The notes under the pieces: generated by a model | Databases searched by the model: none | What the model was told of the DNA's origin: nothing | Seen by the model: only the letters and a program-made list of their open reading frames with translations | Part shown: positions 1 to 11,507 of the stretch, piece by piece | Numbering within the stretch: the stretch's first letter is position 1 | Layout of the letters: each line of letters opens with the position of its first letter | Program-made: the position numbers and the translations under genes | Virus record (IMG/VR): IMGVR_UViG_2657245521_000005 | Coordinates: 1 to 11,507 of that record | Length of the DNA stretch: 11,507 nt | Direction: 5' to 3' (one strand) | DNA from: a virus | Taxonomy: Duplodnaviria > Heunggongvirae > Uroviricota > Caudoviricetes

Positions 1-584
1 TTTCCCAGTTTAACCAATAACTCATCTCGATTTGGAATCATAAGCGCTTTTCCAGTCAAGCAACGTTTTCTGGTTCCTTGTTCAAGGGATAAAAAAACAG
101 GGTTGTTATTAAGTCTCTCAGTTATTATATCTTTTTGTTCATGATAAAAATCCAATGCTTTCGTATTATCACTAGATGTAAATAACTCAATTCTCTTTAC
201 ACAATCATTCATGTGCATGACATTCAACTTTGCTGACCACTCCTCAGTTGAATCTGGATTCTCAGATAAATACATAAACAATAACTCAGCTTCCAGAATC
301 GCTCTTACATGAGGTGCAATCGCCGAAAAATCCCAAAAGTCATAATCCCGCTTAGCCCATCTTGATTTTGGTACGTTGGAAATCATTATTGAAGCATGAA
401 TGCAGATTCGTGAAAAAATGTATGTAGACCACCCTTTAAAAGCCTCAGCCATTCGCACACCAACCCCCTGACTTACAGCATTCGCTTCACATACAGCTTT
501 ATCAAACTCCCTTAAGTAGTGATGGAAGTCATCCATCGAAAAATCGTTTCGTTCAAGTGGATTTTCGGGATTATCTATTTTCAT
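1..584 (-). CDS. Hypothetical protein, N-terminal 194 codons only (C-terminus beyond window start); AT-rich cargo (moron) gene downstream of Q and its terminator
   Basis: Hand translation of the reverse strand from ATG at 584..582 (MKIDNPENPLERNDFSMDDFHHYLREFDKAVCEA...) stays open for 194 codons to the window edge despite AT-rich composition, where stops are frequent by chance. AGGTGA Shine-Dalgarno lies just upstream. Absent from the supplied ORF track, presumably because no in-window stop exists. No recognisable motif. Confidence 0.6.
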   Translation of the reverse strand, partial: MKIDNPENPLERNDFSMDDFHHYLREFDKAVCEANAVSQGVGVRMAEAFKGWSTYIFSRICIHASIMISNVPKSRWAKRDYDFWDFSAIAPHVRAILEAELLFMYLSENPDSTEEWSAKLNVMHMNDCVKRIELFTSSDNTKALDFYHEQKDIITERLNNNPVFLSLEQGTRKRCLTGKALMIPNRDELLVKLG

Positions 585-633
585 ACTTCACCTATTTAAA
601 ACAATTGGTTTAAATCGGTGAATTATAACGCAA

Positions 634-655
634 AAACCCGCTCATTGGCGGGTTT
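634..655 (-). terminator. Intrinsic terminator-like hairpin (tR'-like) between Q and the cargo gene
   Basis: Minus-strand reading gives AAACCCGC-CAATGA-GCGGGTTT followed by TTGCGTTAT: an 8-bp stem with GC core, 6-nt loop and U-rich tail. The tail is U-rich only on the minus strand, matching the direction of Q and the downstream gene. Confidence 0.45.
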
Positions 656-688
656 ATAAAACTTTGGCAACATATCAAATACGCTTCA

Positions 689-717
689 AATATGGCTTAT
701 TTTGTTGCATTTTGCAA
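689..717 (-). promoter_or_regulatory. Putative late promoter (pR'-like) immediately downstream of Q
   Basis: Minus-strand TTGCAA (717..712), 17-nt spacer, CATATT (694..689). Position between the Q stop (748) and the terminator hairpin matches lambdoid pR'/qut/tR' layout. Sequence match to sigma70 consensus is only moderate. Confidence 0.2.
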
Positions 718-747
718 GCGCGTTTGAAGGAGATAGTGAAATTTACT

Positions 748-1437
748 TCACATTTCTGCCACTTTGAGGGCTTCTTCTTCCTCATAGTATTCAAGAGCCA
801 TTGCCAACGCAGATTCATCAAGCTGGGTAAAAGCGGCCTTTAACCCAGCCCAGTGCCCTGAATAGACACGCAACCATGTCGAACGATCAACGCTAACCAT
901 GCGGGCCAACGCTGCACCAGCATAGTCTTTATAGGTTTCATTATTTCTGGTTGCGGCAATTTCCTGCCCTGCCAGCCATACCAGGCCAATCAGTTTCTTT
1001 ACTACGCGCTCCTGAAGGGAATTATCACCCAGGCATTTCTGATAAGTTTTCCAGACGTATTCACACATCATCACTTGGTGCTTATAGCTAAGGTCAAAAC
1101 CGTAGCAGTACCGCAACCAGGCCTGCTGGTATCCACTAAGCGCGGACACTGCCCTACGCCACGGCGCGGACTCAAATTCCGCATCTTTTATCGGCGGCAT
1201 TGGCCTGCAGCGGCTGCGTGTTTCCAGTACATACAATGGCGCGGAAAGCGAGTTAACAAAGCGAGGCCCCTTCTCTCCTTCGAGTTCGACGAGATGAATT
1301 CCACGGCGCGGGGTGGCATTTTTGTCTGCTGGTGGGTGTTCACTGAAAGCCTCAAGCTGCCCTTTTGTTCCCCCAGAGAGGTCAGGTAGCGCGCGGCGCA
1401 ATTCTATTCTTACAAAATTCAGGTCTTGTTGATTCAT
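748..1437 (-). CDS. Antitermination protein Q-like late-gene regulator
   Basis: ORF 748..1458 begins with GTG abutting the upstream stop; internal ATG at 1437 (MNQQDLNFVRIELRRALPDLSGGTKGQLEAF...) has GGAG upstream and is the preferred start. Assignment rests on recalled resemblance to the 21/82-type Q family and on synteny: last gene of the early operon after the nin-like genes, followed by promoter-like and terminator-like elements and a cargo gene. Confidence 0.55.
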   Translation of the reverse strand: MNQQDLNFVRIELRRALPDLSGGTKGQLEAFSEHPPADKNATPRRGIHLVELEGEKGPRFVNSLSAPLYVLETRSRCRPMPPIKDAEFESAPWRRAVSALSGYQQAWLRYCYGFDLSYKHQVMMCEYVWKTYQKCLGDNSLQERVVKKLIGLVWLAGQEIAATRNNETYKDYAGAALARMVSVDRSTWLRVYSGHWAGLKAAFTQLDESALAMALEYYEEEEALKVAEM

Positions 1438-1458
1438 GCTTCTTTGCGCTCCATACAC

Positions 1459-2487
1459 TTAAGCTTTCGCAATTACGCCGATCGCCAGCGCCCGATCCAT
1501 AAAACGCAGTAGCAGCTCAAGCTGCGTACCATGCTTCTGCTCGAATGCCGATACATCGGCGTGTAACTCGTCGTGGCACTCTCTGCACAGAGGGATCACG
1601 AAGAGGTCATGGGCTTTTGTTGCTGTACCACCCATACCGTGCCCTACGATATGGTGCGGATCATCTGCTGGCCGTCGGCAACACTCACAGGGTTGTGTTT
1701 TTACCCAGCGGGTGTAAGTCTCATTTATCCAGCGGCGTCGCTTTGGCCTGAGCATGAAAGATTCCGGAGACTCCGGATCAACAGAGAGCGTGAGGATCTT
1801 CTTCGCCTTCTCCTGCACGAGGCTGGTTGCAGTAGCGGAAGGCACAATGTCGCTTTCCCTCATGACCGAGCGGATCTTCTCATCCGGAAGGCGTAGCCCC
1901 TTGTGCGCAACGCTTTCCGGAATAACATCAGCCAGGTCGTTTCTGACCATCCACCAGCACAGTTCCGGAAGCGTCAGGATATGCGACTCGGGAAAACCAG
2001 AATCACGCCGAATGACTTCCAGAATCCAGGATACCAGGTTTCCTGCCGCTATACCTGCAAGCCGTTCGGTATGCTGCCCCGACAAAGTGTGATCGCAATG
2101 CCAGCACAGGCGAATACTTCCTGGTGGGTGCCGCATTGTTGTGAAGTTCTTGTCGTGCCACGATGAATGTGGCCACTGGCATTCAAACCGAGAACTCAGC
2201 CACTGCTCAAGGGAAGGAAGTCCACCGGCACGCTGAATAACCCGCTCATTCCCGAAGACCTGCCGCATTACCGGATCATCAGCCAGCGGCTGAATGGCTG
2301 CCGGAACAGCCCCGGTACTGAATGACGCCATTTCTTCTGGTTCAGGCTCGAGCAGAACGCGACCACGCATGAAGAGGTGCATCAGTTTAGCACCGGGACG
2401 GAACAGCACAATCCCCATACGATGGGCGATCTCGGGGGTAAGCAGAGCTCTCACGCGACCTGCCCCCTGGCAATGTGTTCTGCCCAC
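1459..2487 (-). CDS. DUF968/YdfU-like prophage protein with C-terminal HNH-like Cys/His cluster
   Basis: 342-codon ORF directly upstream of Q, as ydfU precedes quuQ in E. coli Qin prophage (recalled synteny). C-terminus carries CECCRRPADDPHHIVGH...CRECHDELH, a CxxC...HH...CxxCH pattern typical of HNH/zinc-finger nuclease folds. Start uncertain: GTG at 2487 (GGTGG SD) overlaps the upstream gene by 37 nt; in-frame ATGs also at 2418, 2382, 2370 and 2331. Confidence 0.5.
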   Translation of the reverse strand: MGRTHCQGAGRVRALLTPEIAHRMGIVLFRPGAKLMHLFMRGRVLLEPEPEEMASFSTGAVPAAIQPLADDPVMRQVFGNERVIQRAGGLPSLEQWLSSRFECQWPHSSWHDKNFTTMRHPPGSIRLCWHCDHTLSGQHTERLAGIAAGNLVSWILEVIRRDSGFPESHILTLPELCWWMVRNDLADVIPESVAHKGLRLPDEKIRSVMRESDIVPSATATSLVQEKAKKILTLSVDPESPESFMLRPKRRRWINETYTRWVKTQPCECCRRPADDPHHIVGHGMGGTATKAHDLFVIPLCRECHDELHADVSAFEQKHGTQLELLLRFMDRALAIGVIAKA

Positions 2488-3134
2488 AGTCCACCAATCC
2501 AGCGCACGCCTTTCGCAGTGAAACGTGCCTGGCTGAATGCATGATTTGAGGTTACGGATGTGCCGGTTTTCACTTCAAAACGGCCCGCATCAATATGCTG
2601 ATACCGTGGGGTCATCGTTCCACCAAGGCGATACATGATGTCGTTCTCAAGGAGGAATAACCGCAGATCTGGCTCTTTTGCCTTAAGCAGTTTTGCCACC
2701 TGGCGGAATGACATTGACCCACTGGCTGTACAGTACCGATCAACAAACGCTACCTTCGGCGCCGCGGCAGCCAGTTCGTTAGTCAACTGCTGTTTTTGTT
2801 CTGCAAGGTCAGCGGCAAGACGTAGGGCTTCAGAGAATGATTGAGGAATCGTCTGCTGCTGTGCCTGCTCAAGCTCCTGCCAGCGATCAACCAGACGCGC
2901 GGTAAACTCCGGCGACAGCTGCGCGACAACGATATAACTGTCCCGCTTCCCTATCAGATAAACCGATACCGACTGATTGAGGTGATTTTTAACTTCCCCC
3001 ATTGGGGGGAGTTCAATAACACCGCGCTCTGCCAGGCGTTCAATGGACCGTTTAACATGGTCATGTCGTGATTCCACCAGCTCAGCAATATCGCTGCTGG
3101 ACATGGTTAATGCTGTTGTTGCTAATTGGCTCAT
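2451..3134 (-). CDS. Phage regulatory protein Rha / antirepressor with KilAC-type C-terminal domain
   Basis: N-terminus MSQLATTALTMSSSDIAELVESRHDHVKRSIERL matches the Rha-type HTH signature (recalled). C-terminal YCTASGSMSFRQVAKLL...DIMYR...RYQHIDAGRFEVK resembles the ANT/KilA-C module. ATG at 3134 with GGAG 9 nt upstream is preferred over the ORF-track start at 3173. Confidence 0.7.
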   Translation of the reverse strand: MSQLATTALTMSSSDIAELVESRHDHVKRSIERLAERGVIELPPMGEVKNHLNQSVSVYLIGKRDSYIVVAQLSPEFTARLVDRWQELEQAQQQTIPQSFSEALRLAADLAEQKQQLTNELAAAAPKVAFVDRYCTASGSMSFRQVAKLLKAKEPDLRLFLLENDIMYRLGGTMTPRYQHIDAGRFEVKTGTSVTSNHAFSQARFTAKGVRWIGGLWAEHIARGQVA

Positions 3135-3147
3135 ACTTTTCTCCATA

Positions 3148-3534
3148 TCAGGCGGCCGCACCCGCCGGTTCATATCTGCTGATCGTTATCTCTACCCGAC
3201 CTTTCGGCACTACGGGTCCCCATTCCACCAGCATGCGCTTAATCTGGCTGTCATCTTCCCAGACACCCGCATGCGTCAGCGCGTCAAACAGGGCTTTGTT
3301 GTAATTATCGATATCCCGGCGGCGCGCATCCGGCGGGTACAGAGTGATTTCTACCGCAGCCAGTTCAGTCGATGGCTTCGGGAGACGTCGTAATTGCTCA
3401 ATGATCGCCACGCAGGCAGCGCTCTGGTATTTACGGCCTTCAGCGCTAATGAGGTGACGACCAGCCAGCGCCCCCTTGTTAGGAGCGCGCCAGTAAGTGT
3501 TCACGCTGGGTGGAAATGGGAGTATGAGCCTCAT
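3148..3534 (-). CDS. rusA: Crossover junction endodeoxyribonuclease RusA (Holliday junction resolvase)
   Basis: 128 aa, MRLILPFPPSVNTYWR...RRRDIDNYNKALFDALTHAGVWEDDSQI... aligns by eye with E. coli RusA including the conserved acidic residues. GGAGG SD 5-6 nt before ATG at 3534. Confidence 0.85.
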   Translation of the reverse strand: MRLILPFPPSVNTYWRAPNKGALAGRHLISAEGRKYQSAACVAIIEQLRRLPKPSTELAAVEITLYPPDARRRDIDNYNKALFDALTHAGVWEDDSQIKRMLVEWGPVVPKGRVEITISRYEPAGAAA

Positions 3535-3648
3535 TAAAAGCCTCCGTCATAATTCCTGAAACATACCTCAACTTTCCCGCTATAGTGACGAACACGTTGA
3601 ACAACATCCGAAATAGGCGCTATACCGGCAGGGCGATAAAAGACTGTT

Positions 3649-4971
3649 TCACGCATGAGTTACCCCCTGCATGCTGTCGACAAGACCACGCGCAATTGTG
3701 ATTATTTCGCTGGTGGACATTCGTTCCAGCCAGAGTTGATTGATGTTGGCTTTCAGCTTGTTCTGCTGTGATTCATCCAGCATGTCAGCACCATCCACCT
3801 GGTCGAATACAATTCCAACCTCCAGTGGCCATATACGGGACTCGGGAAGCTGATCGGCTACTGGTTTAGCTTTCTCACGGATGTGCATGCGGATCTGGCG
3901 AATATTGGACCAACTGGAAACATCCAGGCTTCCCATAGCTGCAATGAAATCAGTACTGTTCATGCCATATTCACCAGATGCTTCAAGGGCAACAGTACGA
4001 ATACGTTCCGACATATCCAGGCGCGCAGCAGCGTCATCGAATTCAATCGACAACAGCCACTCATCCACACCGAGCAAAATACTCTCACGAATAAGCAGCT
4101 TCGCTTTGTCGATCGTTAATGGTGATACCTGAGTGAATTCCGGTGCTTCGACAGAATCCGCCGCCCAGGTATGCCCAAACTTCGATTCACTGAATGTGTA
4201 TTCTTCTTTATCGCCGAACGCAGCTCTAACGCATGCCCACGCCTCAACACCGCTGATATCAAAAATATCTTTCTGGGTAAGTGGCAACTCTGCTTCTGGC
4301 TTGTCAGCTACAGGTGGTGTGGCGGTTGCTGGCTGAGGTTTGCTGGTGGCAAACTGTGCCAAAGCCATAAACGCGCGCCCTTTTGTTTCCAGTTCTGTGC
4401 GGTTGATATAGCTGAATCGCTCGCCACGCCATGACTTATCGAATACAGCTATGGCTCCGGAAAAAAACGCGCTGGTGGGCTTCTGTTTTTCGTCAGCAGG
4501 TACAAACCACACTGGCAGATCGAAACCAATGCGCCCGCGAATGAATACAATGTGATCGGCATCTTCCGGCCACCACGTTTCACTCGGCGCGGCTTTTATC
4601 AGGAATACATAGCGACCGCCCTTCTCGCGCTGGGTTGCTGCGTACTTCATGATGTGCGTCATACCAGTGATCGCCTGTTTCTCGTGGTACTGCGAGCGGC
4701 TATATGGAGGGTTGGCAAAAGCCGCGCCACCCAGTTCTGCCAGACGTTCAGACCAGTCCTGCGTCAGTGCGTTATCTTCGGCGGTGTACCATGCCGGGCA
4801 TTTCGCGTTGTCGTCGTCAGCAAACAAGTCCAGAACTAATGGACCAAATAGCGCGTTGATACCCCAGAAAAGCAGATCCGGTGTCCGCCACTGATCGCCA
4901 ACTTCTTTCAATTCGTGAGCTGGTTTTGAACGCAGTTCGGCCAGCGCGCGGCAGTATTTGTTTTCAATCAT
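3649..4971 (-). CDS. Phage-type DNA N6-adenine methyltransferase (Dam-like) fused to a ~230-aa C-terminal domain of unknown function
   Basis: N-terminal ~190 aa contain WRTPDLLF and the catalytic NPPY motif (FANPPYS) of phage Dam-type MTases. A Pro/Ala/Thr-rich linker (KPQPATATPPVADKPEAE) precedes an unassigned domain. The start ATG overlaps the upstream stop as ATGA (4968..4971), suggesting translational coupling. Confidence 0.75.
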   Translation of the reverse strand: MIENKYCRALAELRSKPAHELKEVGDQWRTPDLLFWGINALFGPLVLDLFADDDNAKCPAWYTAEDNALTQDWSERLAELGGAAFANPPYSRSQYHEKQAITGMTHIMKYAATQREKGGRYVFLIKAAPSETWWPEDADHIVFIRGRIGFDLPVWFVPADEKQKPTSAFFSGAIAVFDKSWRGERFSYINRTELETKGRAFMALAQFATSKPQPATATPPVADKPEAELPLTQKDIFDISGVEAWACVRAAFGDKEEYTFSESKFGHTWAADSVEAPEFTQVSPLTIDKAKLLIRESILLGVDEWLLSIEFDDAAARLDMSERIRTVALEASGEYGMNSTDFIAAMGSLDVSSWSNIRQIRMHIREKAKPVADQLPESRIWPLEVGIVFDQVDGADMLDESQQNKLKANINQLWLERMSTSEIITIARGLVDSMQGVTHA

Positions 4972-5900
4972 CCTCTGAATCCCTCTGGAATTTTGGTATC
5001 TACCGGGCCGAACTTCATCGGGTCATGTTTCTTCTCGCCCCAGCTTTCACGAGGGGGACGGCCTTTCTTATCCCAGCGGAGCCCGCTTTGCAGATAACCC
5101 TCAAATTTTTTCGGCCCAAACAGAGTTTCAGGCCGCATGTACTGATACTGCGCGTCATTGCCGTTCCAGTGTTCATGCTTGAGGTCAATCACCAGCGTTA
5201 AGTCGCTGACGGTATAACCTTCACGCAGACGGGCACGTATGTTTTCCAGAGAGGTTTTAGATTTCTGGTACCGGGAGCCGCTTACCTGGTTCAAATGAGT
5301 TAAAACCAGGATGGCGTTATCAGTGATCAACACCTCAGGGTCTGGTTGCGGCGCAACCGGACAAGAGGGGTTAATGATCTGTTTGTGGTGATCTGAGTAA
5401 TGATCTGTATAGAGAATAGGTTCCGCGACTTCGCGGTTAGGGTTCCGCGATTCTGCGTTTTCGGTTCCGTGATTCTGCGGAATAGGTTCCGCGACTTCGC
5501 GTTTCCCGTTCCGCGATTCTGCGGAATCCAGCGTTGCCGGGAATAAAACATTGATTAGCGCTTCGCCATTGATACGGTAATGCGTCTTTTTCGTGCCGTT
5601 TACCTGTCGCTGCGCCTTTTCAACAACCCCTGGTAGCCAGCGGGTACAAATCTTGTTTACCAGGCGCTGCACCTGATCTTCACTCACGCCGCGAATCTCT
5701 GCCGCAAGCTCGCTGTGCTCTTTATAAAACCAGCCATCATTCAGATCTGATTTACCAGACCAGAACACGAGCTGGTTTAGCACAGCGCCCAAAGCATGCG
5801 CCTGCTGATCGCCGGAGAAATAATCGAGGTACGGGACCGGAATGGTGATGCTATTCCTTTGCCCCGACAGCGATTGAACGATTTCAAATATCTGGCTCAT
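4968..5900 (-). CDS. Replication initiation protein (O-like) with origin iterons embedded in the coding sequence
   Basis: 310-aa ORF. The central linker (SAESRNGKREVAEPIPQNHGTENAESRNPNREVAEPI) is encoded by five tandem dyad-symmetric repeats, as the ori iterons sit inside lambda O. The C-terminal segment (HEHWNG...YMRPETLFGPKKFEGYLQ) resembles the conserved C-terminal domain of prophage replication proteins (recalled). Confidence 0.7.
   Translation of the reverse strand: MSQIFEIVQSLSGQRNSITIPVPYLDYFSGDQQAHALGAVLNQLVFWSGKSDLNDGWFYKEHSELAAEIRGVSEDQVQRLVNKICTRWLPGVVEKAQRQVNGTKKTHYRINGEALINVLFPATLDSAESRNGKREVAEPIPQNHGTENAESRNPNREVAEPILYTDHYSDHHKQIINPSCPVAPQPDPEVLITDNAILVLTHLNQVSGSRYQKSKTSLENIRARLREGYTVSDLTLVIDLKHEHWNGNDAQYQYMRPETLFGPKKFEGYLQSGLRWDKKGRPPRESWGEKKHDPMKFGPVDTKIPEGFRG
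5419..5523. repeat. Five 22-bp-period iterons (GGTTCCGCGAYTYYGCGG-like, each with internal dyad symmetry CCGCGA/TCGCGG); putative replication origin
   Basis: Direct reading: units start at 5419, 5441, 5463, 5485 and 5507. An adjacent stretch on the gene-downstream side (5382..5418) is about 68% AT with two GATC sites (5390, 5402). The ORF 5327..5551 (-) in another frame is just the translation of these repeats. Confidence 0.7.
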
Positions 5901-6069
5901 GATCGTCCGTTATCTCCCTGAACTTTCGCCTGAAATGCTCAAGTGGGCTGAAGCATTCGTGCGGGTAGCCATCACGCAGATAGATAACGCGCTGTGTTTC
6001 AGGTTCCCAGCGGATAACACGGACTGGCACTCCACGGTAGTCTTTGAACCTTCGGTTAAGTTCGCGCAC
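5884..6069 (-). CDS. Small basic hypothetical protein (61 aa) directly upstream of the replication gene
   Basis: GTG start at 6069 with GGAGG 11 nt upstream; 3' end overlaps the replication-gene start by 17 nt. No recognisable motif, so this could be a spurious ORF. Confidence 0.3.
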   Translation of the reverse strand: MRELNRRFKDYRGVPVRVIRWEPETQRVIYLRDGYPHECFSPLEHFRRKFREITDDHEPDI

Positions 6070-6241
6070 AGGCGTTTTGCCCTCCGGTTGTAGACCCCCA
6101 CAATTGAAACCGCCCTACTGTGGTTACACGGAACCCAGCGGTTTGATAATCTGCGTTCATACCGAAACAACGGAGTACCCGAAACAGGGATCATCCTGAG
6201 TTGCGGTAGACGGTTAAAAGCCGTTAAACTATTCATGCGGA

Positions 6242-6790
6242 TTATTTCTCCATACTCGAAGAGTTGTTCGCCAAGGCGCCCGGAGCTGCACACTCGCGGG
6301 CGTCACTCTTTTCTGGAAGGCAGTAAACACGGGCAATCAAATTCAGAAAGGTCATCAGAGTTACCCTGAACTGATATGCAATGTCGTTAAGGCTCTGCCA
6401 CTCACCCTTATCAACAACCCCATCGTCGATATACCAACGGTAAGCGTTGACCAGTTCTCCTAGACGCCCCACCAGCTCGGCCAGCTTTAAGCCAATTTCT
6501 TCGTTTTCGTCATCTGGCACCGCACCCGGAACGTGTATCCCGTTATCTGTTTGACGAGAAAACGCATCAGCTATGTAGCTGACACCGGCGGCTTTCTGTA
6601 ACACCATCGCCCATCCCATAGGGAAGATCTGATCCCCGTCGACGCGAAGGCGGTTAAACAATGCGTTCTCTGTCACCCCCAACCATTCCGCCGCTTCGGC
6701 GTAGCCACCAGGCAGATCGGTAATCGTTTTTTTAATCGCTACCACCAGCCAGGCTGGCTGACGTTCGACTTTCCATTGCGGTTCGTTCAT
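6242..6790 (-). CDS. CII-like phage regulatory protein (HTH-containing)
   Basis: Preferred start is ATG at 6790 (MNEPQWKVERQPAWLVVAIKK...) with GGAG 8 nt upstream; the longer ORF-track start at 6877 adds a low-complexity extension. The segment GGYAEAAEWLGVTENALFNRLR looks like an HTH. Located between cro-like and replication genes as cII is in lambdoid phages. Family assignment from memory only. Confidence 0.5.
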   Translation of the reverse strand: MNEPQWKVERQPAWLVVAIKKTITDLPGGYAEAAEWLGVTENALFNRLRVDGDQIFPMGWAMVLQKAAGVSYIADAFSRQTDNGIHVPGAVPDDENEEIGLKLAELVGRLGELVNAYRWYIDDGVVDKGEWQSLNDIAYQFRVTLMTFLNLIARVYCLPEKSDARECAAPGALANNSSSMEK

Positions 6791-6875
6791 TACTGCAACT
6801 CCATTATTGGCGCCGAACTTCCTGACGGTGATAGCCTGCAAGCTCTCACACCAACAGAACCGAAGGAGGTTCGAC

Positions 6876-7112
6876 ATGTCTGTAAATTCACTGCCTTACG
6901 GCAAGTCTCCCGAAGAAGCCGCTCACGATCTGGCCATGAATCTTGTCTTGTCTGGTCACTTCAAAACATTCCAGAAGTCGCCAGAAGAGGTTTTTCAGTT
7001 GATCACCAATGCAGAACTGGTCTTCAGTGAGCTTTACCGAAACAAACTGAAGGAAATAGAGTCCGCCAGATCAAAAGAAACCGAAGAGCAATATCAACGT
7101 ACGCAGTGCTAG
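6876..7112 (+). CDS. Small hypothetical protein (78 aa) encoded antisense to the early operon
   Basis: Perfect AGGAGG SD at 6864..6869 with 6-nt spacer to ATG 6876. Acidic/helical-looking product (MSVNSLPYGKSPEEAAHDLAMNLVLSGHFKTFQKSPEEVFQ...). Its stop overlaps the stop of the convergent minus-strand ORF at a shared CTAG (7109..7112). Confidence 0.5.
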   Translation: MSVNSLPYGKSPEEAAHDLAMNLVLSGHFKTFQKSPEEVFQLITNAELVFSELYRNKLKEIESARSKETEEQYQRTQC

Positions 7113-7354
7113 CCATGAACAAACGAAAGATAGAACGTTGAATAACCACGGGCGGCGCTTTCAACTGCCGCCTGTATTTCCTCCGCGGATCTCCCTCTAA
7201 GGATCATCTCGTTTATCAGCTCGCCAATAAGGGGAAGGACAATTGGCTGGAATGACATGTAAACCCGCATCTTTCCTTCGGAAATGGTTATTTGTCCTTC
7301 ATCGCTTTTAGCGGTCACGCTGTTTGTATCTTTTGTCTCGCTGCTGTTACCCAC
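7109..7354 (-). CDS. Small hypothetical protein (81 aa) downstream of the cro-like gene
   Basis: GTG start at 7354 preceded by AGGAG with a 6-nt spacer. Co-oriented with the cro-like gene and the early operon. No recognisable motif. Confidence 0.45.
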   Translation of the reverse strand: MGNSSETKDTNSVTAKSDEGQITISEGKMRVYMSFQPIVLPLIGELINEMILRGRSAEEIQAAVESAARGYSTFYLSFVHG

Positions 7355-7383
7355 GGTTAACTCCTCTCTTTTGTGGTTGTTGA

Positions 7384-7626
7384 TTAAGCTGCTGAATCTG
7401 CAGACTTTTGGAAAACATCAGGACGCAGTCTTTCTTTTGGGATGCCAGTAACGCTCTCAATGTACTGAGATTGCTTTATTGGCGACCTTTTTTCTCTGTT
7501 GAGCCAGTTCCATACCTGTTGTTGTTTAACTTCCTTCCCGGAACTTGCAGTTAGTTTCCGGGCTAACTCAGACTGGCCACCAGCAGTTTCAATTGCCTCT
7601 GAAAGGGCTAACTGCTCAGGTGTCAT
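7384..7626 (-). CDS. Cro-like HTH regulator (YdaS-type)
   Basis: Preferred start ATG 7626 (MTPEQLALSEAIETAGGQSELARKL...RLRPDVF) with GGAGA SD and 7-nt spacer. The pattern AIExAGGQSxLAR...ERLRPD resembles the YdaS/Cro-like HTH family (recalled). Divergent from the CI-like repressor across an operator-rich spacer. Confidence 0.7.
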   Translation of the reverse strand: MTPEQLALSEAIETAGGQSELARKLTASSGKEVKQQQVWNWLNREKRSPIKQSQYIESVTGIPKERLRPDVFQKSADSAA

Positions 7627-7763
7627 AGTTTTTCTCCTGTGGTTTGAGGTAAAAGTTGTTGGCACCATTGATCATACAACCTAAACAACTTTTACCACAA
7701 CTTTTAGGTGTTGGAAAGCTAAAACATAAAGTTGTAATCTCTCCTAATACAGGGGGTAAAGTT
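7627..7763. promoter_or_regulatory. Immunity switch (OR-like): operator half-site cluster with divergent pR-like and pRM-like promoters
   Basis: The 8-mer AAAGTTGT occurs at 7652, 7728 and 7758, and its reverse complement ACAACTTT at 7685 and 7697, all within 137 bp. Candidate pR (minus): -35 TTGTGG (7700..7695), 18-bp spacer, -10 TATGAT (7676..7671). Candidate pRM (plus): -35 TTGGAA (7711..7716), 18-bp spacer, -10 TAATCT (7735..7740). Confidence 0.55.
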
Positions 7764-8450
7764 GTGAATACACTTGCGGAACGACTAAAAATAGCTAGAG
7801 AGAAGAAAGGCATGAGCCAGGCTCAGTTAGCCGAGCTAATAGGCCTGTCTCAACAATCTGTGGCGAAAATTGAAAATGGAGATACGCTTCAACCTAGAAA
7901 GATCAAAGATATTGCGAAAGCTTTAGATGTATCCCAAAAATGGCTACAGCTCGGAATTGAGGAGAATGGCTCTATTTCTGATTTTGTAGTTGAGGAACTT
8001 GAAGAAGCAAAACTTGATCCTGAAGTATTTGCCAACATACCCGTTCTCGATGTTGAGTTCTCTGCTGGCAATGGATGTGAAGCCGAAATTGTGGAATCAG
8101 TTGTTGATTCGTTCCCTCTTCGTCGTTTCGATCTTAGAAAAGCTGGAGTCAGTCCTGCTAACGCAAGAATCGTAAAGATTTGGGGCAACAGCCTTTTGCC
8201 AGTATTGAATAATGGGGATCATGTCGCGATTGACATGTCACAGTCGAAACCTATCAGAGATGGTGATTTATACGCTGTTAGAGATGGAGTTTTACTTCGA
8301 GTTAAAGTTCTTATCAATCAACCAGATGGTGGTTTGATACTGCGGAGTTTCAACAAAGAAGAGTACCCGGATGAAGTACTCAACTTTGATGAAAGAAGAG
8401 CCAGAATACACGTTATTGGTCGCGTGTTCTGGTCTTCACGTTCATGGTAG
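7764..8450 (+). CDS. CI-like prophage repressor (HTH_XRE N-terminal domain plus LexA-like S24 autopeptidase domain)
   Basis: Preferred start GTG 7764 (GGGGG SD, 7-nt spacer); the ORF-track start at 7656 would lie inside the operator region. HTH: LAERLKIAREKKGMSQAQLAELIGLSQQSVAKIENGD. Candidate Ala-Gly cleavage site in FSAGNG. S24 motifs: WGNSLLP (Ser) and LLRVKVL (Lys). Confidence 0.85.
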   Translation: MNTLAERLKIAREKKGMSQAQLAELIGLSQQSVAKIENGDTLQPRKIKDIAKALDVSQKWLQLGIEENGSISDFVVEELEEAKLDPEVFANIPVLDVEFSAGNGCEAEIVESVVDSFPLRRFDLRKAGVSPANARIVKIWGNSLLPVLNNGDHVAIDMSQSKPIRDGDLYAVRDGVLLRVKVLINQPDGGLILRSFNKEEYPDEVLNFDERRARIHVIGRVFWSSRSW

Positions 8451-9323
8451 AGCGTGAAAAAGCATTTCTTCTGAAATGATTTTTAACTTAGCCCCTTCAT
8501 CATCTCTATATGAGACTGCTTTTTCTATTTTCCTTCCGTGACTGGAGAACTTCCAGTCACGCGAGGAAAGAGTACCAATTACGAGAAAATCAATTCTCTT
8601 TGTGATTCCGCTGGAAATCAGTCCATTATTCTTTTTAATTAGGTCTTCAACATGTGCTCTCTTTCCTGCCAAAAAAACACCCGTTAAGCAAAATGTTTTA
8701 TTTTCAACAGAAACTTCAGCAGTATTATCTAATGGTAATTTAGTAGAAAGCCCATCTACGACGCCGCTTGCAAGGTCACAACCAGTAAAATCTACCAGCG
8801 CCTTGTGTAGATTTTCACTTTCTTCAGTGGTGATGATCCCATCGCTCAGAATCTCTTTTACTAAAGCGTATAGTTCCTTTCCTGGATAATTACTTTTTAG
8901 CGCCCCGTTCTGTGTTAACCACCAGTCCAGGTATCTCACTTCTTCTTCACTTAAGGTTCGATCTGATATTAAACCCTTGCAAAGACCATTCAACAGATGC
9001 AGATCTGACTCACTGGAGAATAAATCCACATCGGGTATATCGAGTATTTGTCTTTGTATATCATTAAGATGCAGTTTTAATTCACCACGCTCATCATCAG
9101 AAACAACACCATCGGCCAGTATTTTAGAAACCCTAACACTTAGACTCTTGATAACACCATTTCTAATGGTTTGGTTGGCTTCAAGTAGCCAAGTATCAAG
9201 ATATAGCACCTCTTCATCCCGCACATGTCCATCGGCAAGAATCCCATCAATAATGCTGATTAAATTTGCAAAAAGCTTATTTCTATTTTGTGTGTAGTTA
9301 AAAACGTAGAGCTTGTCTTCCAT
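8442..9323 (-). CDS. Hypothetical protein with four TerB-like helical repeats and a C-terminal BRCT-like domain; candidate immunity-region accessory (defence or exclusion) gene
   Basis: Preferred start ATG 9323 (MEDKLYVF...) with AGGAGG SD. Four repeats of I-L-[AS]-D-[GR]-x-[VIL]-x-x-[ED]-E at aa 28, 68, 118 and 158 (ILADGHVRDEE, ILADGVVSDDE, LISDRTLSEEE, ILSDGIITTEE). C-terminal KTFCLTGVFLAGKRAHVEDLIKKNNGLISSGITKRIDFLVIG...KIISEEMLFHAL resembles the BRCT domain of NAD-dependent DNA ligase. Markedly AT-rich relative to flanks; 3' end overlaps the repressor stop by 9 bp. Confidence 0.75.
   Translation of the reverse strand: MEDKLYVFNYTQNRNKLFANLISIIDGILADGHVRDEEVLYLDTWLLEANQTIRNGVIKSLSVRVSKILADGVVSDDERGELKLHLNDIQRQILDIPDVDLFSSESDLHLLNGLCKGLISDRTLSEEEVRYLDWWLTQNGALKSNYPGKELYALVKEILSDGIITTEESENLHKALVDFTGCDLASGVVDGLSTKLPLDNTAEVSVENKTFCLTGVFLAGKRAHVEDLIKKNNGLISSGITKRIDFLVIGTLSSRDWKFSSHGRKIEKAVSYRDDEGAKLKIISEEMLFHALP
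8463..8486 (+). terminator. Weak terminator-like hairpin just after the repressor stop
   Basis: CATTTC-ttct-GAAATG followed by ATTTTTAA. The stem is short and AT-rich, and the element lies inside the 3' end of the convergent gene on the other strand. Confidence 0.2.
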
Positions 9324-9375
9324 ACAGCCTCCTTTTTTGAACATCCTTACATTCAGACGCCCCACAATCAAACCA

Positions 9376-9456
9376 CATAAAGTTGTTGACATAACCATTA
9401 TTCACAACTAAATTACACCTTAAAGTTGTTATTACGATTTACAACATTACAACTAG
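9376..9456. promoter_or_regulatory. Second operator cluster (OL-like) with near-consensus rightward promoter (pL-like)
   Basis: Plus-strand -35 TTGACA (9386..9391), 17-bp spacer, -10 TAAATT (9409..9414). AAAGTTGT at 9379 overlaps the -35 and recurs at 9422 near the predicted start site; ACAAC-type half-sites at 9404, 9441 and 9449. Same 8-mer as in the cI/cro spacer. The divergent promoter for the 8442..9323 gene must also lie here. Confidence 0.5.
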
Positions 9457-9559
9457 CCATAAGCAACAGCGAACAGGCAGGACGCCCACGAAGTAGCCGC
9501 CGGTGGCGTATGAATAACCGGATGATTCGCTCAATAAAGTTAGGTAGGGGAATTTCACG

Positions 9560-9772
9560 ATGAATGCAGCACAACGCCGAAGGGCTTATCACAAACACCC
9601 GAAAGTTGGGGACACTGTAATTTTACGAGGCATTCCTCGCCTAGTACTGGGTCCGTGTACGTTCAACAGCCTTACTGGCGAAGAGCGTAGCAAACCTTCG
9701 GTAAGCCGTGTCAGGGTTCAAATGACTGGCGGCTCAACAGCTGCACCACTCGTACGTAATTTAAAGTTTTAG
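9560..9772 (+). CDS. Candidate small N-like protein with N-terminal arginine-rich motif (speculative)
   Basis: First ORF after the pL-like promoter, 70 aa. N-terminus MNAAQRRRAYHKHPK resembles the arginine-rich RNA-binding motif of lambda N (DAQTRRRERRAEKQ, recalled). Upstream CGCTCAATAAA is a weak boxA-like match. SD is poor (GGGG about 10 nt upstream). Could be non-coding. Confidence 0.3.
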   Translation: MNAAQRRRAYHKHPKVGDTVILRGIPRLVLGPCTFNSLTGEERSKPSVSRVRVQMTGGSTAAPLVRNLKF

Positions 9773-10558
9773 CGATAAACAGGTGTCTTCGGGAGGGGTT
9801 ACGGGCTGGAGTGACTACCAGCATCGACAGCTCTATCCGACGAAACGGAACCGTCTAACCCGCGGTTGTCGGTGAAAAGTACCGTAGGGATGCCAGCTAG
9901 TCACTGGCCCCCGCCCGAAGATACCTACCACCGCGCCTGATGTGGTTAAAAGCAGGCCAAAGCAATAACAAGTACTTCCCTGTTCTGGCGGCCCGGTGTT
10001 TTCCCACTTGTCCGGTCACCGCCAGCCTTTTTCAGGGCACAACGACGAGAGCATTGACGAGCAAGGCATAAGTGCTGGTTCGATTCCAGACAGTCCCATT
10101 CTGTTGGGAGGGTTGGGCAGGGAAAAGGTTCGTTCGATTCGAACACCGGCAGTGCTCTCTTCGTTGTGGTGAATGCGCAGGCTGATGCGCTAAACCGTGA
10201 GGGAGTGTCCCGAAAGGGTGCGTCACTGGTAATCAACCCATGCCGGAATATCGTAGTACCGGCCACCACAACCAAATCACGCTTAGGACCGTGATAACCG
10301 TAGTTCCAGTATTGCTGTGTGTAGTCTTGGCGGTACCAGGGTCTTCAACCTTATGCAAGGGGGACGAAGATAATGTTCTACCTCGGTACCGCCCTTTTTA
10401 CGCAACAGAAAAGGGCATCACCGGGCGACGGGCTCATAACCCAATCCACCCTGGCAAAAGACAGCGGTCTCTGCAAGCCGCCGACCAATGCAGGTGTCCT
10501 TCTCTGTTGTGTATGGAGAAAACACGGCGGTGGAAGCCGCCTTAACGAGGGTAAAACC
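9773..10558 (+). other. GC-rich ORF-poor transcribed leader; candidate structured non-coding RNA or decayed gene remnant
   Basis: Hand translation of all three plus frames from 9781 to 10240 gives a stop every 20-65 codons; track ORFs on both strands are short, overlapping and of junk-like composition. Contains GC-clamped hairpins (CUUCGG 9787..9792; CCC-GAAA-GGG 10209..10218), a palindromic GTTCGATTCGAAC (10131..10143) and a G3N1G3N2G3N2G3 motif (10106..10122). Confidence 0.3.
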
Positions 10559-10930
10559 ATGAGTAATGACCGCATGACCGTAGTGCCAGATTTTCTTGGC
10601 GAACTGGATGCCGGCGTGTTCATGAACAAAATCGCGGCAGCACTTAATACCACCGCGCTTGGCGTTCTGAACAATGGCAACAAAGGCAAAGTAGTCCTCA
10701 CCTTTGATTTTGAGCGTATGGGTAATTCCGTTGAAGAGAAGCGCGTGAAGATCAAGCACAAGCTGAACTACAGCACCCCGACACCGCGTGGTAAAGCCTC
10801 CGAAGAGGACACAACCGAAACCCCTATGTGGGTTAACAAAGGCGGGAAGCTCACCATCCTGCAGGAAGACCAGGGCAACTTGTTTACCCTCGGCGGGGAT
10901 CCGGACGGAAAGTTACGCGCGGCGAAATAA
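10559..10930 (+). CDS. Hypothetical protein (123 aa)
   Basis: ATG 10559 with GAGGG SD and 7-nt spacer (MSNDRMTVVPDFLGELDAGVFMNKIAAALN...). The ORF-track start at 10373 adds a Cys/Trp/Gly-rich junk-like extension and is rejected. No family recognised. Confidence 0.55.
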   Translation: MSNDRMTVVPDFLGELDAGVFMNKIAAALNTTALGVLNNGNKGKVVLTFDFERMGNSVEEKRVKIKHKLNYSTPTPRGKASEEDTTETPMWVNKGGKLTILQEDQGNLFTLGGDPDGKLRAAK

Positions 10931-10987
10931 GCCGCGATTGATAGCCCTTAGTTTCAGTTTTTCTACATCTATCTTTAAGGAATTTTT

Positions 10988-11425
10988 ATGTCTCAGTTAG
11001 ACAGCGGTACCTTCAAGCAGGTCAAAGACCTGGTTCTTTCCGGTTATCACCTGAATGATATTCATGGCCTGGCTTGCCCGACCGCATTACTGCCAGAGGG
11101 TACTGGCGTTGAAAGCCTCGAGCGTTTTTCTCTGGAGCGTTTCCGCTTCCGCGGTGCCATGACCACGACCAGCATTGAAGATTTTGCTCGTTATTCAAAA
11201 GGCTATGCCAGCGCCACTGAAAAAGCACGCTGCTTTATTGACGCTGACCATATGACAGCCCGTTCAGTATTCAACATTGGCACACTCGATAACCCCGGTC
11301 ATGCGGACAATGTTGCATCCATCACCCTAAAACAGACCGCACCATTCCGTGCTCTTCTCCAGATCAACGGTGAACGTCTGAAACAAAAACAGATCGCCGA
11401 GTGGCTGGAAGACTGGAGCGATTAA
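10988..11425 (+). CDS. Hypothetical prophage protein (145 aa)
   Basis: ATG 10988 with AGGA SD and 7-nt spacer; coding-like composition (MSQLDSGTFKQVKDLVLSGYHLNDIHGLACPTALLPEGTG...). A vague recollection of DUF2303/YfdQ-like prophage proteins is not strong enough to name it. Confidence 0.6.
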   Translation: MSQLDSGTFKQVKDLVLSGYHLNDIHGLACPTALLPEGTGVESLERFSLERFRFRGAMTTTSIEDFARYSKGYASATEKARCFIDADHMTARSVFNIGTLDNPGHADNVASITLKQTAPFRALLQINGERLKQKQIAEWLEDWSD

Positions 11426-11507
11426 CCGGAAATCAGCATGACAGGATGCGGGACTTTGATCCGGACAGCCCCGAAATAAAATTCAGTGATCGCAGGGCAG
11501 CCCTTGA

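Follow-up and report, generated by a model that had tools for sequence, protein, structure and literature searches.

The most consequential cargo of lambdoid phages, Shiga toxin included, is housed in the slot between the antiterminator gene Q and the lysis genes. In the lambdoid model, RNA polymerase that starts at the late promoter PR' and is modified by Q becomes terminator-resistant. The window considered here, a stretch of 11,507 nucleotides from a virus of the Caudoviricetes (IMG/VR record IMGVR_UViG_2657245521_000005, positions 1 to 11,507), begins at base 1 inside an AT-rich cargo gene that occupies this slot and appears to encode a divergent protein of the DUF5677 superfamily. Judged by its anatomy alone, the gene is very probably a self-contained single-gene moron located right after the terminator tR' of a lambdoid late operon and ahead of the lysis cassette.

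The stx operons of Stx-converting lambdoid phages lie between Q/PR'/tR' and the lysis genes, ahead of the holin gene S (PMC8065619). The window gene is likewise foreign cargo downstream of Q, a late promoter and a terminator, and upstream of a lysis cassette, and the same Q-dependent read-through on induction would be expected for it. Unlike an stx operon, it specifies a single DUF5677 protein, predicted to be cytoplasmic and all-helical, with no AB5 organization, signal peptide or RIP domain, and its DUF5677 relatives live outside phages too.

Classical lambdoid morons include bor and lom of lambda and the nmpC and csp genes in the Q-S slot of the K-12 cryptic prophages. HK97 gp15 is a further lambdoid moron (cited in PMC11364771). 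Like these, the window gene is an extra gene that is missing in sister phages, has a deviant GC (guanine plus cytosine) content, its own leader and a downstream terminator, and sits between two conserved modules. It differs in belonging to another family and in showing only a -10-like hexamer as a putative promoter.

Prophage moron loci and integron cassettes also encode defence systems, among them the single-gene anti-phage systems BstA and Tai and the defence cassettes of mobile integrons (PMC8585504; PMC11364771; bioRxiv 10.1101/2024.07.02.601719). These are solitary, AT-rich, patchily distributed genes in moron loci, cassettes and plasmids, as is the window gene. Unlike them, the DUF5677 protein has no similarity to any PADLOC v2 model, and its role in defence is hypothetical.

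Morons in the Q-to-lysis slot are already known, and the family is catalogued as a domain of unknown function (DUF). The searchable literature holds no description of the recurrent capture of this DUF5677 clade behind three Q families, nor of its integron-cassette life, its conserved-residue set or the exact boundaries of the module. To a specialist the finding would be plausible rather than surprising.

The window had previously been read from its letters and translated frames only. This sequence-only reading described a 194-codon frame of about 38% GC that runs off the window, placed it as the first gene after a Q-like antiterminator, a putative late promoter and a terminator, and took it for cargo in the slot used by stx. 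The frame is as described. It opens with a minus-strand ATG at 584-582 and is uninterrupted to base 1, and neither strand has another open reading frame (ORF) of at least 40 amino acids (aa) that overlaps 1-584. In 2000 shuffles of the region the longest open frame averaged 68 codons and peaked at 151; not one contained 194 open codons. The AT-richness is also borne out, at 37.3% GC in 1-584 versus 52.5% in the prophage backbone (748-7000). The same is observed more widely: in 21 prophage loci the cargo gene has 35-38% GC and the upstream DNA 49-58%. The cargo gene is compositionally foreign to the prophage.

Homologues in Hafnia share 79% nucleotide and 85% amino-acid identity with the window ORF. 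Against these homologues pN is 0.077 and pS is 0.715, with synonymous sites saturated, which gives a dN/dS of ~0.035. Because of this ratio the ORF is a real gene under strong purifying selection. The alternative, a chance open frame in AT-rich spacer DNA, could draw on the truncation of the ORF by the window edge and on the 194-aa fragment, which alone has no Pfam match at E <=0.1. It has a probability of next to nothing and is already refuted by the present data, namely the shuffles, the dN/dS with its saturated synonymous sites, 30 full-length homologues across genera, 1059 cluster representatives at E <=1e-3 in an exhaustive profile search (560 at <=1e-10), and a confident AlphaFold model (pLDDT 87, pTM 0.85).

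The 30 homologues of the fragment are nearly all 278-295 aa long, and the complete gene is found in two IMG/VR contigs, L025 and L031. Both equal the window over the gene's 582 nucleotides (nt), with 100% protein identity over the window part, and L025 matches window 1-1916 at 98.9% identity. The ORF stops after 283 codons in L025 (4145-4996) and likewise completes at 283 aa in L031. From 24 nt past the stop codon, beyond the reach of the window, L025 has a hairpin with a T-run, and a terminator-like hairpin is present 3' of the gene in 10 of 13 prophage loci. L025 continues with about 1 kb more AT-rich DNA, followed by a PF16931 holin, a PF05449 holin and a GH19 endolysin. The sequence-only reading had named two findings that would count against it, a frame interrupted just beyond the window and a product that proved to be a lysis protein. 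Both fail, because the ORF closes at 283 codons and a separate cassette of two holins and an endolysin follows. A lysis protein was also rejected on the lack of any holin, endolysin or spanin match in Pfam, PHROGs and NCBIfam.

Databases list the exact protein under E. coli and under 'MULTISPECIES Enterobacteriaceae'; one E. coli entry for the 283-codon product is HAU8151896.1. The 90% cluster to which it belongs is often met in Klebsiella pneumoniae (145 contigs), Citrobacter koseri and Raoultella.

An opposite-strand ORF of ~220 aa (L025 5215-5934, minus strand), whose two terminal helices are hydrophobic and whose middle is helical, is observed in L025 and also in L031. No family match was found for it. 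It is absent from other prophage loci and is therefore probably a separate moron. A two-gene system was considered and rejected on this absence and on the lack of any conserved neighbour. Just past the lysis cassette of L025, again on the opposite strand (7666-8367, minus), is a DUF4145 protein (E 8e-11), which is another probable moron.

The upstream edge of the cargo module is defined by a prophage of E. coli Nissle 1917. This prophage shares window 632-3516 at 97.6% identity, and the similarity ends at the last base of the terminator T-run. Past the terminator, the Nissle prophage carries other cargo: a hypothetical protein, an SDH-family Clp-fold serine protease, another hypothetical protein and a DNA methyltransferase. 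The mosaic junction is the end of the terminator, and since the similarity stops there, the cargo module starts at 631. When 1-760 was searched by megablast against 5,426 complete E. coli genomes and the INPHARED phages, only the Q/terminator part was matched.

The position of the gene is recurrent among prophage loci, which were taken from assemblies and IMG/VR. Of 24 related loci, 21 have a Q protein next upstream, from PF06323 (11 loci), PF06530/DUF1133 (seven) or PF03589 (three). Next downstream, 13 of 21 loci have a holin, drawn from four families (PF04971, PF16931, PF16080 and PF05106), and three of 21 an N6/N4 DNA methylase. Four of the six Citrobacter loci have the methylase and then the holin (L011, L012, L013 and L041). 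The same family has been captured repeatedly behind three unrelated Q families and before four holin families. The Citrobacter, Hafnia and Enterobacter prophages share the slot, and its content is variable. A decayed Raoultella prophage keeps the gene in the order integrase, Xis, exonuclease VIII, several more genes, DUF968, a 200-aa Q-like protein, the cargo gene, a holin and a tail-fibre fragment. Together with the Nissle junction, these neighbours uphold the placement of the gene as cargo in the stx slot. By the usual marks of a moron, the gene is absent from close relatives at the same position, deviates in GC content and has a terminator downstream.

The Q gene, a promoter and an intrinsic terminator lie directly upstream of the cargo ORF and are co-oriented with it (Table 1), which agrees with the order first proposed. 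The likely start of Q is the ATG at 1437; it gives a protein of 229 aa and matches the gene call in locus L001. Its homologue in Nissle carries the annotation 'bacteriophage antitermination protein Q'. Promoters of the TTGCAA or TTGACA type were also read by eye downstream of Q in six related loci (L002, L028, L033, L037, L040 and L042). The terminator hairpin has an 8-bp GC-rich stem and is present when the 106-nt leader is folded to its minimum free energy (z = -3.48). Most related loci have the same type of terminator in the same place, and it is also conserved with the Nissle prophage. A generic promoter/terminator scanner listed neither the promoter nor the terminator, so both calls rest on direct reading, folding and conservation in related loci. 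Perhaps the scanner missed the terminator because the stem absorbs part of the T-run. The position of the cargo gene suggests that its expression depends on Q.

The leader at 585-631 arrived with the cargo, since the Nissle similarity ends at 632. Just past the T-run of tR' and inside the cargo module, at -43 to -29 from the start codon, the window (TATAAT) and related loci have a TATAAT or TACAAT hexamer. Such a -10-like hexamer is found in 8 of 13 related leaders versus 3.7 expected from shuffles, the loci not being independent of one another. No -35 or extended -10 element is evident by eye near the TATAAT at 627-622, and the scanner listed no promoter there. An Enterobacter locus (L004) has TTGAAG upstream of its -10-like hexamer, with 15-nt spacing.

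The leader is also predicted to fold into a hairpin, UCACCG...UAGGUGA, in which the Shine-Dalgarno region has a mean P(unpaired) of 0.14 versus 0.42 in shuffles. Similar pairing is predicted in L008, L028 and L035 and is not seen in L002, L004, L034 and L042. Translational control by this hairpin across the family was dropped as an idea, because only the window and some relatives have the pairing.

The completed protein belongs to the DUF5677 family (PF18928), of which the fragment gave no sign. The remark in the sequence-only reading that the product has no recognizable motif therefore stands for the fragment and not for the full-length protein. At its full 283 aa the protein reaches 21.6-21.7 bits (E 2.3e-4), and the gathering score is 27.1. 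It is filed as a divergent clade and not as a Pfam-defined member because its own score is under this threshold. P0010, which is 63% identical to the window fragment, scores 28.9 bits and is above the cut-off. Distant members score 29-47.5 bits, with P0057, P0090 and P0108 at 40-47.5. In the family alignment, 65 of 71 members match PF18928, and a second family does not recur. NCBI uses the name 'DUF5677 domain-containing protein' for members of the protein's own 90% cluster. Through these intermediates, the protein is best regarded as a divergent enterobacterial prophage clade of the DUF5677 superfamily. It differs from the Pfam model, which has 166 positions, in its length of 283 aa, its conserved N- and C-terminal helices and its basic tail.

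No function is assigned to DUF5677 in Pfam or in the literature that mentions the family. NCBIfam gave no match and PHROGs nothing significant. In PADLOC-DB v2, no family was matched at E <=1 by the fragment, and none at E <=0.1 by the full-length protein and eight relatives, fusions included. Sequence searches of the PDB with two profiles gave nothing below E 0.08, and Foldseek with the model against the PDB and BFVD gave nothing below E 0.3.

The structure prediction called for by the sequence-only reading gave the confident AlphaFold2 model mentioned above. Built from a 26-sequence alignment, the model is all-alpha, with 11 helices, nine of them of at least 7 residues. The protein is read as soluble and probably cytoplasmic. 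Conservation was scored over 71 members that are 21-57% identical to P0001. The near-invariant residues are S38, P72, W84, D85, R94, E98, Y105, D127, R131, F164, G178, S208, H212, P215 and G229. A Gly-rich loop, YYRMExNGRGxG, is the most conserved stretch and the least confidently modelled. The conserved polar residues and the loop may form an active or ligand-binding site. Two further identities were considered and rejected. A membrane protein, prompted by rhodopsin matches, is contradicted by the lack, on inspection, of any hydrophobic stretch long enough to span a membrane. Membership of the HEPN superfamily or the HEPN-domain RNases is contradicted by the lack of the Rx4-6H motif.

The stx-like position of the gene relative to Q, PR', tR' and the lysis genes, together with its AT-rich foreign DNA, would suit a virulence toxin of the Stx kind, massively made on induction, released by lysis and acting on eukaryotic cells or grazers. 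This is very improbable. There is a single gene and no A/B pair, no toxin family is matched, and the N-terminus (MKIDNPENPLERNDF) is acidic and has no hydrophobic signal sequence by inspection; cargo of the AB5 type was rejected on these observations. Cassettes and plasmids also carry the family widely in plant pseudomonads and in marine, free-living Vibrio, Shewanella and Photobacterium, where no phage lysis is available for release.

Relatives at ~50% identity are not in prophages. They are found in promoter-proximal integron cassettes, on plasmids and in islands without phage genes around them. The chromosomal integron of Vibrio rotiferianus CAIM 577 carries the gene as a one-gene cassette (L023 2765-3885) between two attC-like repeats. 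These repeats, of ~126 nt and the form TAACAAA...GCGTTA, occur in eight copies in the 7.2-kb contig. The cassette-type 5' end, GCGTTA/TGTGTTTATGAGG, is also found in Shewanella, Celerinatantimonas and Rheinheimera (L014, L021 and L022). Nine plasmids carry the gene, among them a conjugative plasmid of Shewanella baltica. The gene adjoins a RelE/ParE pair and an integrase on a Photobacterium damselae plasmid, and on a Pseudomonas amygdali plasmid it lies between IS66 and IS5. It is beside a Zeta-toxin gene in a Pseudomonas chromosomal island and with a resolvase in a small Aeromonas island. Because no neighbour is conserved, the gene works alone.

Two Shewanella loci share the same two hypothetical genes, of 269 aa and 187 aa, after the DUF5677 gene (L014 8998-10448 and L047 5969-7419). 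The first is on the chromosome of Shewanella oncorhynchi and the second on the conjugative plasmid of S. baltica OS223; the shared block could be co-transferred or could represent adjacent cassettes. Upstream in L014 are an AAA ATPase and Peptidase_S8 pair and IS110.

Some family members are fused to other domains. P0139 (L046 6001-7983) joins a DUF5677-like region to a C-terminal zinc-ribbon-like CxxC pair and a RES toxin domain, the latter by Pfam match. P0050 has a C-terminal extension with two hydrophobic, transmembrane-like stretches, as read by eye. P0057, P0059 and P0061 have an N-terminal extension of ~200 aa, without a family label, ahead of DUF5677. The fused forms are single metagenomic cluster representatives or a few, with one each for the RES and transmembrane-like forms.

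The distribution bears on whether the gene serves the phage in its late phase, through host shut-off, counter-defence, or modulation of lysis or late expression. In most loci the gene is co-oriented inside the late operon right before the holin, and Q-dependent read-through is its most obvious expression route, both of which would fit such a role. The close Nissle prophage, which shares the Q/PR'/tR' module, lacks the gene, and no relative was found by tblastn at E <=1e-5 in the 50,697 isolated phage genomes of INPHARED. The gene is also kept in the cryptic Raoultella remnant, which has no full lytic apparatus, and the ~50%-identity relatives have no phage genes around them. A late function of benefit to the phage is accordingly held to be improbable.

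Accessory genes of many kinds are found in cassette arrays, plasmids and islands such as those that carry this gene, and this speaks for a function unrelated to phages. The gene would then be a host-beneficial or selfish one, for instance an addiction-type factor or an enzyme of stress or metabolism, hitch-hiking in a permissive site; the conserved polar residues, which suggest an enzyme, and the lack of a defence-family match point the same way. Its repeated independent capture in the Q-to-holin slot of unrelated lambdoid backbones weighs against such hitch-hiking. There is no similarity to any metabolic family and no conserved partner such as an antitoxin, for which the prophage gaps of ~100-170 nt leave no room. 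This function, too, is improbable.

The gene is solitary, mobile, AT-rich and patchily distributed, it resides in prophages, cassettes and plasmids, and it is occasionally fused to a toxin domain. For these reasons it is tentatively read as a stand-alone, enzyme-like conflict or anti-phage factor. The moron anatomy and this function, taken in combination, fall a little short of an even chance. A defence function taken by itself is possible and is put forward tentatively; a secreted virulence toxin or a lysis component is less likely. DUF5677 has been reported as statistically enriched next to defence-associated serine recombinases (bioRxiv 10.1101/2025.10.07.681051). In the most specific form of the anti-phage reading, which is rather unlikely as a whole, DUF5677 proteins would be unrecognized single-protein anti-phage or abortive-infection effectors with a new enzyme-like helical fold, a constellation of R, E, D, R, S and H residues and a flexible YYRMExNGRGxG loop. 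They would travel as a one-gene module in three kinds of vehicle and be boosted on prophage induction.

On induction, Q-modified RNA polymerase would read through tR' and the module's own terminator. The cargo gene would then be strongly transcribed along with the lysis genes, and in the lysogen the leader's -10-like element may allow weak expression. Through abortive infection or exclusion, the protein would shield the lysogen or induced phage from mobile elements or other phages.

Several points weigh against an anti-phage role. Guilt by location is a weak argument, and the Q-to-lysis slot also houses toxins, porins, cold-shock genes and methylases. Behind tR', the gene would be silent in the lysogen unless the weak -10-like element works, which is a poor fit with classical superinfection immunity. 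No experiment or database ties DUF5677 to any activity, PADLOC is not matched even by the full-length protein and fused relatives, and the RES and transmembrane-like fusions are single metagenomic cluster representatives. The sole DUF5677 ORF tested for defence, taken from lactic acid bacteria and expressed in E. faecalis against six phages, is absent from the reported set of protective ORFs (bioRxiv 10.1101/2025.10.07.681051).

The occupants of this slot matter for prophage annotation in E. coli, Klebsiella, Citrobacter and Enterobacter. A truncated ORF is now defined as a 283-aa single-gene module with clear boundaries, a confident model and a list of conserved residues. Its family comprises over 1000 clusters at 50% identity and is without functional annotation. 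Since the gene recurs in mobile vehicles of three kinds, it would be a sensible candidate in defence screens. If a role in defence or abortive infection is true, this would be a new one-gene system and the late-operon slot a defence hotspot; if not, the gene is one more uncharacterized moron.

Read along the minus strand, from high coordinates down, the window represents the early-right and late-control region of a lambdoid prophage (Table 1). The RusA, cI/cro, cII and replication labels come from related loci and from reading of the translations, not from a family scan of the window ORFs.

Table 1. Features of the window, from the cargo gene upward.
Feature	Position	Strand	Remarks
DUF5677-family cargo gene	1-584	minus	codons 1-194 of 283; last 89 codons past base 1
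Cargo-module leader	585-631	minus	-10-like TATAAT 627-622; Shine-Dalgarno AGGTGA 593-588; predicted hairpin pairing the Shine-Dalgarno
tR'-like intrinsic terminator	632-655	minus	stem AAACCCGC / GCGGGUUU, loop CAAUGA, then U-run
PR'-like late promoter	689-717	minus	TTGCAA (717-712)-N17-CATATT (694-689); sigma-70-type, 9/12 consensus positions
Q antiterminator gene	748-1458	minus	PF06323 Phage_antiter_Q, E 3.7e-36, 125 bits; longest ORF
DUF968 protein	1459-2487	minus	
Rha/Ant antirepressor	2451-3173	minus	
RusA	3148-3534	minus	related loci, translation
440-aa ORF	3649-4971	minus	counterparts in related prophages annotated N-6-adenine methyltransferase
cII-like gene, then replication gene	between cro-like gene and 440-aa ORF	minus	related loci, translation
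cro-like gene	7384-7668	minus	related loci, translation
cI-like repressor	7656-8450	plus	faces cro-like gene

The 440-aa ORF is far longer than a typical phage Dam methylase. Its N-terminal part is Dam-like by eye, and about half of the protein, at the C-terminal end, has no label.

A second AT-rich cargo gene (~39% GC) is present at 8442-9398 on the minus strand. It is convergent with the cI-like repressor, with a 9-nt overlap, and is likely a lysogen-expressed moron. Its 318-aa product has a C-terminal BRCT domain (PF00533, E 1.4e-5), falls in phrog_3989 (E 2e-114), which has no PHROG function, and gives a weak PADLOC match to the candidate PDC-S48 (E 7e-5). A Hafnia prophage (L002) encodes a 295-aa protein with a faint BRCT match in the same place beside the repressor.

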